Shown here piece after piece: positions 6,838-20,000 of a DNA stretch of 20,000 bases. Each line of letters begins with the position of its first letter. The stretch's first letter is position 1. The translations under genes and the position numbers were made by a program. The DNA is taken from the IMG/VR virus record IMGVR_UViG_3300033155_000850. One strand, 5' to 3'. This stretch comes from an uncultured virus (IMG/VR IMGVR_UViG_3300033155_000850). Taxonomy: Duplodnaviria > Heunggongvirae > Uroviricota > Caudoviricetes. The notes under the pieces were generated by a model that ran no database searches, had not been told where the DNA came from, and was given only the letters and a program-made list of their open reading frames with translations.

Positions 6838-7328
6838 CATACGGTGCATCGGATACATTAACTCTTATGATTGATCTCGGTAAACAACGGGCGTCAAAGA
6901 ATAAAGATATATTTGAAAACGGAGGTGAGCCGGAAGATTACTTGGATGATCAAGACTTTGCCATCCACGATCCTTGGAGATCATCTTGCGGACGTTTTGA
7001 AGTTGACCCATTTAAAGAATATGGTAAATCGTTCGTTGAATGGTTAATGAGACCGTTCTATACAGATAAAGAAAACATTACACGTCGTCTTAATGAGAAC
7101 AAACGTTCTCAAATACAGGTATTACGTCCTGTCGATGAATCAACTCATGTAATGACCATGAAAGACTGGTTAGAATCACTCGATCAGGGTGCATTTACTC
7201 CGGATGATGGATTCGGTCATTTCGCAAAAGAAGTTAATGGGATAATGAGCGAAGATACTAAAACCGATGTATGGAACGGTCCTTGTAGAGACGATTCATT
7301 CACTCACGTAGCATGGTATAATAAGTAA
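6834..7328 (+). CDS. Phage hypothetical protein, probably two fused modules
   Basis: 164 aa; AGGAG SD; C-terminal GAFTPDDGFG...THVAWYNK. Confidence 0.75.
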   Translation: MTYGASDTLTLMIDLGKQRASKNKDIFENGGEPEDYLDDQDFAIHDPWRSSCGRFEVDPFKEYGKSFVEWLMRPFYTDKENITRRLNENKRSQIQVLRPVDESTHVMTMKDWLESLDQGAFTPDDGFGHFAKEVNGIMSEDTKTDVWNGPCRDDSFTHVAWYNK

Positions 7329-9584: not shown

Positions 9585-9836
9585 GTGATAGTGAGTGAAA
9601 TACAGTACATAGAAAACGGAGTTAGTAATAGAAAATGGAATAGCTTAGAGGCTTGTATAGGCGACCTTTTAGAACCTTATGCCGAACCTAATACTGGTGA
9701 TCTGGAGTATATGAGAGAGCAGATCTCCCACATTAAAGGGTGTCTAGCTAGATTTATAGCTGATCAAAATCCAAGTATGGATACTCTAACTAGAGTATTC
9801 TATGCGGATATAAATATTGTAGAAACGGACGATTAA
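9585..9836 (+). CDS. Phage hypothetical protein
   Basis: 83 aa, GTG start with GAGG SD. Confidence 0.65.
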   Translation: MIVSEIQYIENGVSNRKWNSLEACIGDLLEPYAEPNTGDLEYMREQISHIKGCLARFIADQNPSMDTLTRVFYADINIVETDD

Positions 9837-15664: not shown

Positions 15665-15696
15665 ATGCGGCCAGCCTTCAGGTGGAGCGACTGCGC

Positions 15697-16172
15697 AATC
15701 TATAATCTTCTTAATCTATTATCCCCGTTGTAGATTCTGTAGATTATAGATCCTCGTTTCAATGAAATCTTTTCATAATAGAATCTACTTAGGGTGGTGG
15801 TCGATGTACTCACTGAAGTAGATTCACATACTACGGCCCAGCGGCCCTATGAGCTTAACGGATCACAGTATTAATCTCAGGTCTTCTCCGTTATAGATTA
15901 TAGATTGTTGTAGCAAAGCATGTAGATCCATAAGTTGTTGTTATATATAAGAATCTATTCTATCTATGAAATCTATATATATAAATGGAGGATATATTGA
16001 ATGATATATCTATGATTCCCCCAATGTAGATCGTGGTAGATTCGTAGATTTCATTGGTTGAAGATTTGGAGAGTTTCGGCATGACGGCGCTCAACAGCGC
16101 CCGAGGGGGCGAGTATCTTTATACCGGCGGGCCGACCAAAAGAACTCAACCGTAATAGATTTTGTAGATTCA
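15697..16172. repeat. Iteron-like TAGAT(T/C)/AATCTA cluster with IHF-like site (origin-like module A)
   Basis: About 20 copies in clustered direct and inverted groups; AT-rich core; TAAGTTGTTGTTA 15931-15943 has one mismatch to the IHF consensus. Confidence 0.7.
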
Positions 16173-16521
16173 CGTACGAGGTGCCGCCGTGCCGACCTTC
16201 GCCGAGTCAAGACCTTCGGCCCCTCGGTCCGCCGACTGTTCGTGGGGGTAAAAGTTTCCTCCCGTCGGAGGGGAGGAGCGTAGGACCTTCGGGCTCTCAC
16301 CCCAGAGGGCGAGGATAAGGTTGGAAAACGTGGACCTTCGGACATCGGCACCCCGACCTCGAGGTTTAAGCTAAGATAATAAGAACCGTCGTGCCGCGGG
16401 GGCGTAGGACCTTTTGGCCGGACCTTCGGCCGCTGGGGAAGGCAGCACTTCGGCCTGAGTTATACGTGGACGCAAATAAGAAGCATCCACGCAGGGGCGG
16501 CCCTCAGGACCTGCCCGCTTT

Positions 16522-16554
16522 AAAAAATGGGGGCCAGCCTAACGGCCAGCCCCC
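16522..16554 (-). terminator. Intrinsic terminator
   Basis: Minus strand GGGGGCTGGCC-GTTA-GGCTGGCCCCC-ATTTTTT. Confidence 0.8.
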
Positions 16555-16561
16555 GTCCTAA

Positions 16562-16828
16562 TCAACCCGCCTTAAAGTCTTTCTTGACGTGGTTGAAAGT
16601 ATAGCCACCGCGAGCGGAGTAGATCTGCCCGTAGGACAGCCCCAGTTCCTGGGCGGCTTGTTTGTGGCTCATTGCCACAAGATCACCGAACTTAACGCGA
16701 AAGGCGTCATCATCGGTCATGGACCTCTCACTCTTCGGCCCGCGGTCACGTACCTTGATGGCATCAACGCGGGTTTCCAGAGCCGTAACGCGCTCTTCCA
16801 AACTCAACTTCTTTTCGGGATTACCCAT
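16562..16828 (-). CDS. Coiled-coil + HTH DNA-binding protein (paralog 1), 88 aa
   Basis: AGGAGA SD before ATG 16828; HKQAAQELGLSYGQIYSARGGYTFNHV; own promoter and terminator. Confidence 0.85.
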   Translation of the reverse strand: MGNPEKKLSLEERVTALETRVDAIKVRDRGPKSERSMTDDDAFRVKFGDLVAMSHKQAAQELGLSYGQIYSARGGYTFNHVKKDFKAG

Positions 16829-16874
16829 GGTGGATCTCCTATATTGGCTAGAAAGTATTTTCCGGCCATAGTTA

Positions 16875-16904
16875 ATAGTACCATAGAGTAGCAACAATGT
16901 ATAC
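16875..16904 (-). promoter_or_regulatory. Early-type promoter GTATAC-N18-TACTAT
   Basis: Close match to the 11113 promoter, including upstream GAACATGTATACATTG. Confidence 0.85.
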
Positions 16905-17199
16905 ATGTTCCTTATACTCAGTTGTTATAAGAGAATCGTAGGACCTTCGGGCCGTCACGCCCCTCAGAGGGGGGACTATGGGGGGTAGGACCTTCGGGCC
17001 GCTCCTCCTCCTCGAGGGGGGACTATGGGGGGTAGGACCTTTCGGACCTTCGGCCTGCCGCGTGATGGTCCCCACAGGGACGGCTGAACCGGGCTGCTTT
17101 TTAGTAATGATGGACCTTCGGGCTGGTAGGACCTTCGGGCCGAAGGACCTTTTTAGGACCTTCGGGCCTCCCCCCGGGGCGCCCCCAATCATATCCGAC

Positions 17200-17244
17200 T
17201 TGACATAACGCAGATTCTAAATGATAATGACAATCATTATCATT
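17200..17244 (+). promoter_or_regulatory. Sigma70 promoter TTGACA-N17-GATAAT overlapped by a Fur box
   Basis: TTGACA 17200-17205; GATAAT 17223-17228; GATAATGACAATCATTATC 17223-17241 matches the Fur consensus at 18/19. Confidence 0.75.
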
Positions 17245-17381
17245 AACTTTTCGTCGGGCAAGGTTGCCATAAAAATCATCACGTCGGCACGCCAGATCAT
17301 TTCTAGCGCATTAAAATTTGCGATCGTGTAGGCCGTACGGGCCCAGAAAAGCTAAAATGGGGGACGACCCAGATTTCAGGC

Positions 17382-17410
17382 AAAAAAAGGGGCGACCCGG
17401 AGGCCGCCCT
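17382..17410 (-). terminator. Intrinsic terminator
   Basis: Minus strand AGGGCGGCC-TCCG-GGTCGCCCC-TTTTTTT; same hairpin repeated at 17704-17725. Confidence 0.85.
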
Positions 17411-17414
17411 ACTC

Positions 17415-17687
17415 TCATCTTCCCGACCAAGCTTCGATTGTGAATCGATTATCGAGATACTCACAAATTAGCTTCATCGGTTTTGACATCTTTGGATTTC
17501 CACGAACGATTTCCATAGGTTGTTTACCCATACAGAAACCCCAACCCAAACAATCATACCAGCCATAAAACCAGCTGTCTTCACTTGGTTCGACACCGAA
17601 ATGCTCTCTAATGTCATCATCGACATCAGAGAATAAGACGTCTGTGTCAGGCGCATTTTTGGACACTAACTTGAAATAGTTAGGCAT
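17415..17687 (-). CDS. Phage hypothetical protein, 90 aa (MPNYFKL...)
   Basis: AGGAG SD before ATG 17687. Confidence 0.8.
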   Translation of the reverse strand: MPNYFKLVSKNAPDTDVLFSDVDDDIREHFGVEPSEDSWFYGWYDCLGWGFCMGKQPMEIVRGNPKMSKPMKLICEYLDNRFTIEAWSGR

Positions 17688-17731
17688 TCTCTTACTCCTA
17701 AGTGGGGCGACCCGGAGGCCGCCCCGTGTGG

Positions 17732-17809
17732 TCATTCCAAACTAGTAATGATTGCTAGAAATGGAATGCAGATTATCAACAATGCTAAGCTGTAAAGAAT
17801 TCCAAACAT
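17732..17809 (-). CDS. Hydrophobic micropeptide, 25 aa (MFGILYSLALLIICIPFLAIITSLE)
   Basis: Manually translated; GGAAAGG SD; bracketed by hairpins 17843-17860 and 17704-17725. Confidence 0.55.
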   Translation of the reverse strand: MFGILYSLALLIICIPFLAIITSLE

Positions 17810-17842
17810 ATAACCTTTCCTTTTGCTTTGGCGTTAAAGTGC

Positions 17843-17860
17843 CGGGGCCTTTCGGCCCCG
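17843..17860 (-). terminator. Hairpin after HTH paralog 2
   Basis: CGGGGCC-GAAA-GGCCCCG, weak U tail. Confidence 0.55.
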
Positions 17861-17874
17861 ACCTTTCAACCTCC

Positions 17875-18186
17875 TTACGCTTTAACGTGGTTGAATGTGT
17901 AGCCCCCTCGAGCGCTGTAGATTTGTCCGTAGGACAAACCTAACACCTTCGCCGCTTCCTTGTGGCTTTTATCCTTCAGGTCTCCGAATTTGCACCTTTG
18001 TGCATCTTCATCGGTCATCGACCTTTCAGATTTTGGACCACGATCCCGAACCTTGATCGAATTGACCTTCGAGATTATCTCGTTGACCTTTCCAATCAGT
18101 TGGGCCGTGGTGGCCTTTTCACCCAATGTCTCAATTTTGACCTTTACATTGGTTCCTTCAGAAACTACCTTGTCAGTATTTGACAT
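17875..18186 (-). CDS. Coiled-coil + HTH DNA-binding protein (paralog 2)
   Basis: Shares IKVRDRGPKSERSMTD and LGLSYGQIYSARGGYTFNHVK with paralog 1; GGTGA SD before ATG 18186 (alternative start 18198). Confidence 0.85.
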   Translation of the reverse strand: MSNTDKVVSEGTNVKVKIETLGEKATTAQLIGKVNEIISKVNSIKVRDRGPKSERSMTDEDAQRCKFGDLKDKSHKEAAKVLGLSYGQIYSARGGYTFNHVKA

Positions 18187-18359
18187 AACATTCACCATAT
18201 AAGAACCTTATGGACCTCTTGATCCCGACAGGTTCACAAAATCGGGGAGGTAAATCTGGGGCCTCTTGGGCTTGCTCTTCGGCCTTCGGGCCGGTGCGGT
18301 TGAGCCAGTTTCTGCGCGCTGGCGGGCGGCTATTTATTTGTTTATTTGATCGTAGGTCC

Positions 18360-18388
18360 ATAATACCGTGTTGACCGGCAATGTACAC
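18360..18388 (-). promoter_or_regulatory. Promoter GTGTAC-N17-TATTAT (class 2)
   Basis: Shares CAACACGGTATTAT with the cassette promoters. Confidence 0.85.
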
Positions 18389-18646
18389 TTTTTATGCGCG
18401 ACTAAGTTGTTGATATGTAACGAGAAAGCAAACTAATTGAAATTAATTTAAAAGCCGTTATAAAACAACGGCTTACACGGAAAATAAACTTAAAGCTATA
18501 GTTGTACGCATTGTGCGACAAATCAGCTCACGACTATCCAGATCGTCCAGACTACATTATACGTATAGCCTTTATGCTACTATCAATGTACGATTTAGCG
18601 CTGACTGAGACGATCTGGGACGATGCTTTATATGGTCATTTTTGAA

Positions 18647-18664
18647 TAGTTTCGAGTGAAACTA
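18647..18664. promoter_or_regulatory. Palindromic operator-like site TAGTTTC-N4-GAAACTA
   Basis: Related copies at 19241-19258 and 19541-19558. Confidence 0.65.
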
Positions 18665-18701
18665 ATCTCAGCGCCCGGAAAAAAGTATGCCAACTTTGAG
18701 T

Positions 18702-18724
18702 GTAAATGACAATCATTATCATTA
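18702..18724. promoter_or_regulatory. Fur box
   Basis: GTAAATGACAATCATTATC matches at 16/19; 20-mer AATGACAATCATTATCATTA identical to 17226-17245. Confidence 0.65.
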
Positions 18725-18984
18725 GCCCAGAATGCAGCCAAGTGGCCTCTAAAAAGCAAACGAGAGACGTCCAGATCGTCCAGATCGCGTCGATACAGGG
18801 GGGCTCCGTGTTAGGCGTACGGCGGGAGAATCAACGGCTTACGTCGCTTTCGGTCCAGATCGTCCGTATCGTTGAGTCTATATGGCCTATATGCTACTAT
18901 CTAAAAGATATAAAGTGCTGATAGAGACGATCTGGACGCACGTTTAAGTGATTGATTTCTAACGAGTTTTAGTTGAAAATAAAC

Positions 18985-19013
18985 GTGTACATTCTAGCTC
19001 AACACGGTATTAT
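18985..19013 (+). promoter_or_regulatory. Cassette 1 promoter GTGTAC-N17-TATTAT with A-rich UP element
   Basis: Near-identical to 19285 and 19584. Confidence 0.85.
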
Positions 19014-19040
19014 AGAACTGTAATCAATGAGGAGACGAAA

Positions 19041-19199
19041 ATGGAAACTACAATAGCAGATCTTGAATTGTTTGTATTAGGTTTTCTGACATTTAACTTC
19101 GTAGTCATAATCATCTTCAGTATGATTCTAGACTCACGTATCACAAAGTTAGAGTCGAAGATGAGAAACAAGTACGTCGATAGATCTCGACTGATATAG
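19041..19199 (+). CDS. Small membrane protein, 52 aa (METTIADLELFVLGFLTFNFVVIIIFSMIL...)
   Basis: Manually translated; GAGGAG SD; between promoter and terminator. Confidence 0.75.
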   Translation: METTIADLELFVLGFLTFNFVVIIIFSMILDSRITKLESKMRNKYVDRSRLI

Positions 19200-19206
19200 G
19201 AGATCT

Positions 19207-19233
19207 GAGCGCTCTTCGGAGCGCTCTCTTTTT
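19207..19233 (+). terminator. Intrinsic terminator
   Basis: GAGCGCTC-TTCG-GAGCGCTC-TCTTTTT. Confidence 0.85.
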
Positions 19234-19284
19234 CCGAGAATAGTTTCACTCGTAACTAATCTTAGAGATTAATTGAAAATAAAC

Positions 19285-19313
19285 GTGTACATTTCCGGCC
19301 AACACGGTATTAT
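19285..19313 (+). promoter_or_regulatory. Cassette 2 promoter
   Basis: Exactly 300 bp after the cassette 1 promoter. Confidence 0.85.
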
Positions 19314-19340
19314 AGAACTGTAATCAACGAGGAGACGAAA

Positions 19341-19490
19341 ATGCAATACGCAATTGAAATAAACGAAAATGCCACGGTCAACCTAATTGATCAAAGCGGC
19401 AATATTCTTTTAGAGGCCGCGACGACCGACGAAGTCGATTCGTATATCGACGAAATCATCTCGATGTTGAAAAATCTTAAATACGATTAA
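19341..19490 (+). CDS. Small acidic protein, 49 aa (MQYAIEINENATVNLIDQSG...)
   Basis: Manually translated; GAGGAG SD. Confidence 0.75.
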   Translation: MQYAIEINENATVNLIDQSGNILLEAATTDEVDSYIDEIISMLKNLKYD

Positions 19491-19497
19491 GATTTAC

Positions 19498-19533
19498 GAA
19501 GGTGATAATGATTATCATTATCGCCTTCTTTTT
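19498..19533 (+). terminator. Intrinsic terminator whose stem contains a perfect Fur box
   Basis: GAAGGTGATAATGAT-T-ATCATTATCGCCTTC-TTTTT; 19504-19522 is the exact reverse complement of GATAATGATAATCATTATC. Confidence 0.8.
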
Positions 19534-19583
19534 CCGAGAATAGTTTCATTCGTAACTAATCTAGGAAATAATGTAAAATAAAC

Positions 19584-19612
19584 GTGTACATTTCTGATCA
19601 ATACGGTATTAT
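19584..19612 (+). promoter_or_regulatory. Cassette 3 promoter
   Basis: 299 bp after the cassette 2 promoter. Confidence 0.85.
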
Positions 19613-19636
19613 GGATCTATCAACAAGGAGAACGAA

Positions 19637-19843
19637 ATGACATCACGTAGAATCAGGAAGCAACAAACGACAATCAAAATTACGAATGACTTGATCGAAC
19701 GGACTAAGTCGGTTGTCATATATAAAGACGAACACGGTCGGTGGACGGTTCGTTGTTTCGATAAACGAGGTCGATATATCGGTGGTCGAAATAACACCAA
19801 TCATCATGACGCGGTCAATTCGGCTAGGTTGTATATGTCGTGA
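19637..19843 (+). CDS. Small basic hypothetical protein
   Basis: 68 aa, AAGGAG SD. Confidence 0.75.
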   Translation: MTSRRIRKQQTTIKITNDLIERTKSVVIYKDEHGRWTVRCFDKRGRYIGGRNNTNHHDAVNSARLYMS

Positions 19844-19849
19844 TATGTC

Positions 19850-19880
19850 AAGTCGGCCACCTCAGAGGTGGCCGACTTCT
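19850..19880 (+). terminator. Hairpin / probable terminator
   Basis: AAGTCGGCCACCTC-A-GAGGTGGCCGACTT. Confidence 0.65.
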
Positions 19881-19886
19881 GCCTCT

Positions 19887-20000
19887 CGACCAGCGCCTCC
19901 CGACCAGCGCCTCCCGACCAGCGCCTCCCGACCAGCGCCTCCCGACCAGCGCCTCCCGACCAGCGCCTCCCGACCAGCGCCTCCCGACCAGCGCCTCCCG
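19887..20000. repeat. Perfect 14-bp tandem repeat (CGACCAGCGCCTCC)n, at least 8 copies
   Basis: 8 exact units plus 2 nt, running off the window. Confidence 0.95.

Follow-up and report, generated by a model that had tools for sequence, protein, structure and literature searches.

A sequence that looks like a Fur-repressed promoter in the DNA of an uncultured phage is probably one of several Fur look-alike docking sites that cluster in the chromosome-end region of its phage family, and not the start of a small RNA (sRNA). This reading comes from comparing the window, i.e. the whole analyzed stretch of 20,000 nucleotides, with the sequences of its relatives. Four features were seen directly: the boxes themselves, the 6-bp stagger of their sites, the restriction of boxes to the terminal region throughout the family, and a second motif that keeps a fixed distance from the box. 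In the best explanation that we found, to which we give an about even chance, the phage is lytic and Xp15/Effie-like, and the flagged site is one of three predicted host-Fur sites in its terminal repeat that would work as DNA, gating or shielding the chromosome ends, rather than as an RNA promoter. The features of the window are as follows.

15937..20000, continuing to about 20508 in the extended record, no strand: inferred long direct terminal repeat of about 4.6 kb, by homology to Effie
16562..16828, minus strand: HTH-like family marker gene, copy 1 (HTH look-alikes at 0.80, leads only)
17195..17208, plus strand: dispersed 14-bp repeat element with TTGACA, source of the apparent -35 (34 copies, 10 loci)
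17200..17228, plus strand: sigma-70 promoter-like match TTGACA-17-GATAAT, best in the window (11/12)
17216..17248, no strand: Fur box 1, three 21-bp sites with a 6-bp stagger (16.4, 28.4 and 21.5 bits)
17324..17344, no strand: second conserved motif, 21 nt (identity 0.87 among 7 module copies)
17382..17409, minus strand: intrinsic terminator of the minus-strand operon (hairpin 17389-17409, minus-strand U-tract)
17415..17687, minus strand: 90-aa ORF between two identical hairpins, with a homologous stretch in locus L070
17875..18198, minus strand: HTH-like family marker gene, copy 2, paralogue of copy 1
18360..18387, minus strand: phage-type promoter TGTACA-16-TATTAT, no Fur box overlap
18701..18727, no strand: Fur box 2, two staggered sites, no promoter overlap (consensus match 18702-18726)
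18986-19013, 19286-19313 and 19585-19612, plus strand: three phage-type promoters TGTACA-16-TATTAT, no Fur box overlap
19497..19529, no strand: Fur box 3, perfect 19-mer at 19504-19522, stem of a plus-strand terminator
19844..19856, minus strand: TTGACA-bearing element, copy 2, without a -10 behind it

The window phage and its inferred terminal repeat

The ORFs at 16562-16828 and 17875-18198, which are paralogues, matched Xanthomonas phage Xp15 and Acinetobacter phages Effie, HHU4 and MD-2021a (6 records), and by these protein matches the window phage is Xp15/Effie-like. Bacterial genome contigs yielded no match to the marker protein. A second record of the window phage, 99.97% identical over 6659 bp, extends the window, and the extended record encodes terminase large subunit, portal, scaffold and major capsid genes. 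One further ORF had no PHROG match, so its label as terS-like rests on its position ahead of terL; used as a query in viral contigs, it retrieved the window phage only.

The terminal repeat was deduced from the Effie record, which carries an exact 3598-bp repeat at both ends with the HTH-like marker gene inside. The left boundary of the Effie repeat aligns with window positions 15930-15940, where a motif is found that recurs in 9 further loci. Its right boundary falls within a conserved end motif, which is present at position 7188 of locus L024 and in a total of 23 representative loci, the window phage among them. By this homology, the repeat of the window phage would run from about 15937 to about 20508. 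This placement comes from a single record, and the period of its repeat, exactly 50,000 bp, is so round that it may be artefactual. Contig ends coincided with the inferred genome termini in 4 of 181 cases against a background of 2.1%, which lends the placement no support. The inferred repeat is mostly non-coding and carries early-type promoters and small genes. The flagged Fur box lies 1.3 kb from its left end and 3.3 kb from its right end, i.e. not at the tip. By analogy with T5, we assume that in this family the left repeat enters the cell first.

Several other features were noticed in the window. The four TGTACA-16-TATTAT promoters are near-identical, three of them stand at a 300-bp spacing, and an inverted CGTGT...ACACG repeat may be their operator. 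Dispersed GGACCTTCGG and TAGATT repeats occupy 16190-17170 and 15690-16170, and a 14-bp tandem repeat of at least 8 copies fills 19880-20000. By eye, a homologue of Effie gene 20 was recognized at 2008-2562; in Effie this gene lies inside the terminal repeat, here it is 14 kb away. Two tRNA-like halves with an insertion between them were likewise seen by eye at 2730-2850, and ARAGORN called no tRNA there or elsewhere in the window.

Fur boxes across the family

At no more than 3 mismatches, the 19-bp Fur consensus matched the window 7 times, compared with 0.01 matches expected, and the matches form clusters at 17223, 18702 and 19504. The first-pass annotation had described the first of these; boxes 2 and 3, as well as the second copy of the TTGACA element, are additional to it. 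Boxes 1 and 2 share an exact 20-mer.

The surroundings of the marker gene were then surveyed in relatives. An alignment of 16 marker proteins led to 41 viral and 74 metagenome loci, and 117 loci, with the window phage's own records excluded, were dereplicated to 92 clusters. Within 3 kb of the marker gene, 73 Fur boxes were found in 343,666 bp, compared with a single box in 219,644 bp lying more than 5 kb away, the near regions being largely non-coding and the far regions coding; 20 local shuffles yielded 0-1 boxes. A motif-free search of the non-coding DNA near the marker gene returned pieces of the Fur box as the most enriched 10-mers. GAGCGC-containing k-mers were among the most enriched 7- and 8-mers of the same DNA in many related loci.

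The boxes keep to one side of the inferred chromosome end. In the 23 loci with the end motif, all 47 Fur boxes lie on its inner side, 29 of them within 500 bp. Arrays of 6-8 boxes are present in L091, L037 and L104, the maximum per locus being 8, and there is one box each in several loci. The first box of the array lies about 30-55 nt inside the inferred end in L091, L133, L037, L053 and L042. Allowing up to 4 mismatches, one Fur box was found in Effie, with 4 mismatches, and none in Xp15. Since boxes are present in 27 of the 92 clusters (19 of the 54 with at least 3 kb of sequence) and in 13 of the 23 loci with the end motif, and are lacking in Xp15, they are not essential family-wide. TTAACA repeat runs, some with an 11-bp period, were also noted between the Fur array and the first promoter in L091, L037 and L104; to our mind, they recall the direct repeats bound by response regulators, with a resemblance to ArcA sites.

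Eleven motifs in all were scanned against shuffles. Motifs for CRP, FNR, LexA, NrdR, Zur and ArgR did not exceed shuffles, DnaA boxes were marginally raised in relatives (47, compared with 36.6 in shuffles with a maximum of 44) and numbered 0 in the window as consensus boxes, and IHF sites were modestly raised (52, compared with 24.4 in shuffles and 32.9 when scaled from far regions). Also enriched were IscR type-1 sites, scanned with the 25-bp consensus given in an excerpt of PMC3899308: 24 sites in 10 related loci, one of them perfect (25/25), compared with 1 far from the marker gene and 0.1 in shuffles. No IscR type-1 site was found in the window. IscR sites are present in 3 of the 23 end-motif loci, together with Fur boxes in one of these, and 8 loci lack both.

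The arrangement of these and other repeats was also recorded. In L050, L042, L096, L092, L040, L003 and L007, up to 7 IscR type-1-like sites stand in tandem inside the end motif. Such sites lie beside Fur boxes or are interleaved with them, and a 54-bp unit of L006 and L042 consists of one of each. A palindrome TAGTTTC-N4-GAAACTA is found at 18647, 19241 and 19541 of the window and in 17 copies in 7 related loci, none of them far from the marker gene, and tandem repeats with DnaA-box-like 9-mers lie just outside the end motif of L012 (5700-5900).

These numbers bear on the idea that the replicating genome is a sponge that titrates Fur, and also IscR, thereby derepressing host iron uptake and Fe-S assembly, in the manner of a natural FURTA. 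The boxes are many (six per window-phage chromosome, up to 8 per related locus), their dose is doubled by the terminal repeats, both enriched motifs belong to iron-dependent repressors, and multicopy Fur boxes derepress a reporter according to an excerpt of PMC3145626. However, a sponge needs neither a fixed place, yet 47 of 47 boxes are inside the end motif, nor a second motif at a fixed spacing, and in several loci it would consist of one box; we therefore regard it as unlikely.

The promoter-like match and the supposed RNA

In the first-pass annotation, the flagged site was read as a canonical promoter covered by a Fur box that drives an iron-starvation sRNA or an antisense switch. The promoter sequence itself is real: TTGACA-17-GATAAT is the best of the 71 sigma-70 matches in the 20-kb window (55.5 in shuffles). 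The Fur box does lie over its -10 and +1, with 18 of 19 consensus positions matched at 17223-17241 (1 mismatch) and a second register at 17229, and the -10 is the first hexamer of that box. The apparent -35 belongs to the 14-bp TTGACA element, whose 34 copies at 10 loci comprise 2 in the window phage and 32 in 9 relatives, a count from which duplicates, the near-duplicate L071, named phages and the pattern hits L025-L031 were omitted. A -10 matching at least 5 of 6 positions at a distance of 16-18 nt follows one of the 32 copies in relatives, and one matching at least 4 of 6 follows three. A Fur box lies 6-44 nt downstream of 13 of these copies and upstream of 4, and is absent nearby in 15. 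As the -35 spacing is not conserved among relatives, the promoter-like match is probably a by-product of two adjacent elements. Not all copies are independent, because L069 and L074, in which the element is arranged in tandem 35-bp units, are close kin; within these units it alternates with the GGACCTTCGG repeat. One copy in L074 has TTGACA-16-GATAAT. Family-wide, 14 of the 73 Fur boxes overlap a promoter-like site, compared with 9.7 (sd 2.8) with shuffled flanks, and 22 of 200 shuffles reach 14, so that the overlap does not exceed chance. The flagged sequence might be able to fire in a reporter, and it might be an accidental Fur-repressed antisense promoter in the window phage alone.

The description of the DNA behind the site also held. 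The plus strand between 17235 and 17410 contains no credible ORF, only short ones (36 aa from inside the box and 41 aa from a TTG), and the GC hairpin was located at 17389-17409 with its U-tract on the minus strand. An identical hairpin follows at 17704-17724; one contig of DNA run X2 joins 17409 to 17729. Three DNA runs from a single study yielded nothing longer than short pieces of relatives, which gave no evidence that 17245-17340 is conserved.

The sRNA reading was not supported by comparison. In addition to the variable -35 spacing, its body is diverged without covariation, it has no plus-strand terminator, and at gathering score it matches no Rfam family. The flagged region gave 0 Rfam matches at gathering score; four sub-threshold matches were rejected, e.g. 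MicX on the minus strand (25.7 bits, compared with 75). The fold of the plus-strand RNA body was no better than that of shuffles (z = -0.41 and -0.62), and in the window and five relatives the hairpins inspected have no U-tract on their plus side. The minus strand of 17200-17420 folded with z = -3.66 when the terminator and the palindromic box were included; with both removed, z was -1.70 (10 of 200 shuffles) and one of five consensus pairs had a two-sided change, leaving no reason to posit a minus-strand RNA.

More was learned from the module formed by the Fur box and the second motif, of which 7 copies were found in 4 phage records: one in the window phage, one in L070, three in L076 and two in L077, the last two loci carrying it in tandem. 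L058 has one weaker match without a Fur box, and a scan of viral contigs for the two-motif module returned the window phage only. In all 7 aligned copies, 101-102 bp separate the start of the Fur box from the second motif. Among these copies, the box and the second motif had mean identities of 0.86 and 0.87, compared with 0.36 for the stretch between them, 0.29 upstream and 0.39 behind the second motif, and none of 8 consensus pairs covaried on the plus strand. A pair of protein sites explains better than an RNA why two conserved islands stand at a fixed distance with diverged DNA between them.

We consider it very improbable that a Fur-repressed promoter makes an iron-starvation sRNA here, or a transcript antisense to the minus-strand operon. 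Such a promoter would account for the best sigma-70 match in 20 kb with a box over its -10 and +1, the L074 copy offers a similar geometry, and the conserved motif at 17324-17344 could be a pairing seed; an unstructured RNA with a conserved seed is conceivable. Against it stand the single good -10 among 32 element copies, the varying distance and side of the box, the low upstream identity, the absence of fold, covariation and plus-side U-tract, and the tandem modules. The site shares with RyhB and PrrF a Fur box over a sigma-70-like -10 with no ORF behind it; unlike them, it comes without an Rfam match, a terminator on the transcribed strand, or a conserved promoter geometry or structure. It is very likely that no selected sRNA starts here.

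The terminators of the region raise another role, in which bound Fur is a roadblock that backs them up and insulates the chromosome end or origin from strong early transcription. Such a function is suggested by box 3, which is itself a terminator stem, as is one box of L074, by the boxes that follow the marker-gene terminator in L003, L006, L012 and Effie, and by the 8 of 73 boxes near a strict terminator, compared with 5.1% of random positions. However, the other 65 of 73 boxes lie away from called terminators and the arrays of 6-8 boxes adjoin the end motif, so that an insulator, too, has little probability in our view.

The binder and parallels with known systems

The claim of a Fur-type operator stood on sequence grounds, i.e. 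the 18/19 consensus match, the 6-bp stagger and the enrichment in relatives. A matrix grown from the top enriched 10-mer, with the window phage left out, converged on a 21-bp palindrome, and 114 of 115 overlapping sites were 6 bp apart, which is one of the two commonest spacings of overlapping Fur sites in the portion of Chen et al. 2007 available (PMC2189734). In 40 kb of E. coli DNA, all four matches above 8 bits fell in fepB-entC or fepD-entS intergenic DNA, and the fepA-fes operator was missed. A Fur or Rrf2 gene is absent from 5 of 5 phage records, 3 of which are at least 90% complete. Taken together, host Fur is the likely binder of the boxes. That they are instead sites of a phage protein (HTH-like, terminase or replication protein) with an incidental likeness to Fur would suit the other clade-specific repeats and the two HTH-like proteins encoded in the region, yet it is hardly probable, as the putative recognition stretch of the marker protein is invariant in 16 of 16 aligned proteins although the boxes come and go (27 of 92), independent IscR-type sites co-occur, one of them perfect, and the matrix picks E. 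coli Fur operators.

With E. coli Fur operators (PMC2189734, in the part available), the boxes share the 19-bp consensus, palindromy, the 6-bp stagger and hexamer-extended arrays; unlike them, they are mostly off promoters, belong to a lytic phage and are confined to the terminal region. Host-regulator operators in phage DNA are also described in an excerpt of PMC9437464 for CtrA, LexA and, in phi29, Spo0A; those sites are promoter-associated, whereas the Fur boxes of this family largely are not. Our literature search, thin on subscription journals, found no paper that describes Fur boxes in the terminal repeats of phages.

Two model phages have comparable sites. A Fur site at nohA, which was bound in a gel shift according to the same excerpt of Chen et al. 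2007 (PMC2189734), belongs to prophage Qin, where a packaging gene follows it. An identical Fur box is found in lambda, 32-56 nt from the right genome end. The final 80 nt of lambda recur without change in front of the Qin cos, and we take cosQ and cosN to be the labels of this lambda/Qin end. The lambda box thus lies just inside the right end, as do the first array boxes of L091, L133, L037, L053 and L042; lambda, however, has cohesive ends and one site, whereas a long direct repeat is predicted for the Xp15/Effie-like family, with 0-8 sites. In T5 (L143), Fur-type boxes were found at 9652-9719, inside the annotated iss (22-23 bits), and a Fur-type cluster at 227-253 (23.6 bits) inside dmp near the left tip. 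The T5 injection stop region may resemble the inferred repeat in its repeat-rich non-coding DNA, its setting in a long terminal repeat that makes up about 8% of the genome, and its motifs for host proteins; it differs in its ordered DnaA boxes (0 in the window) and in an A1/A2-dependent two-step injection, none being known for the Xp15/Effie-like family. The Davison preprint (10.1101/866236), in the text available, proposes DnaA for the T5 stop and calls the host protein unsolved; that text contains the word iron 0 times, and of its five word-start matches to "fur", those displayed read "furthermore".

Returning to the docking-site reading, we propose that iron-loaded Fur dimers would load onto the boxes and, together with other proteins on the neighboring repeats, such as IscR in some relatives, form a coat over the terminal repeat. 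By analogy with the host proteins suggested at the T5 injection-stop region, the coat may then act on the chromosome ends, pausing or gating the entry of the remaining genome or shielding the linear ends. The terminal repeat would thus be a landing strip for host proteins, Fur first, that act at entry or packaging. Fur and IscR type-1 sites are both occupied in iron-replete cells (excerpts of PMC3145626 and PMC3899308), which keeps an iron gate open as a reading. It is quite unlikely, though conceivable, that the Xp15/Effie-like family, T5 and lambda, unrelated to one another, converged on end-coating by Fe-Fur and [2Fe-2S]-IscR, with genome entry or processing gated by host iron.

If this were true, the phage would sense host quality in cis through its DNA, with no need of a phage gene or a promoter. 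Binding of Fur and IscR to the ends of lytic phages, off promoters, would be a use of host regulators outside the operator model. The pause in T5 injection, so far unexplained, would also gain a candidate host factor, and the Fur site beside lambda cos, which has no known phage role, a possible one. With Effie as a cultured member of the family, and with lambda, the reading is open to tests with fur mutants.
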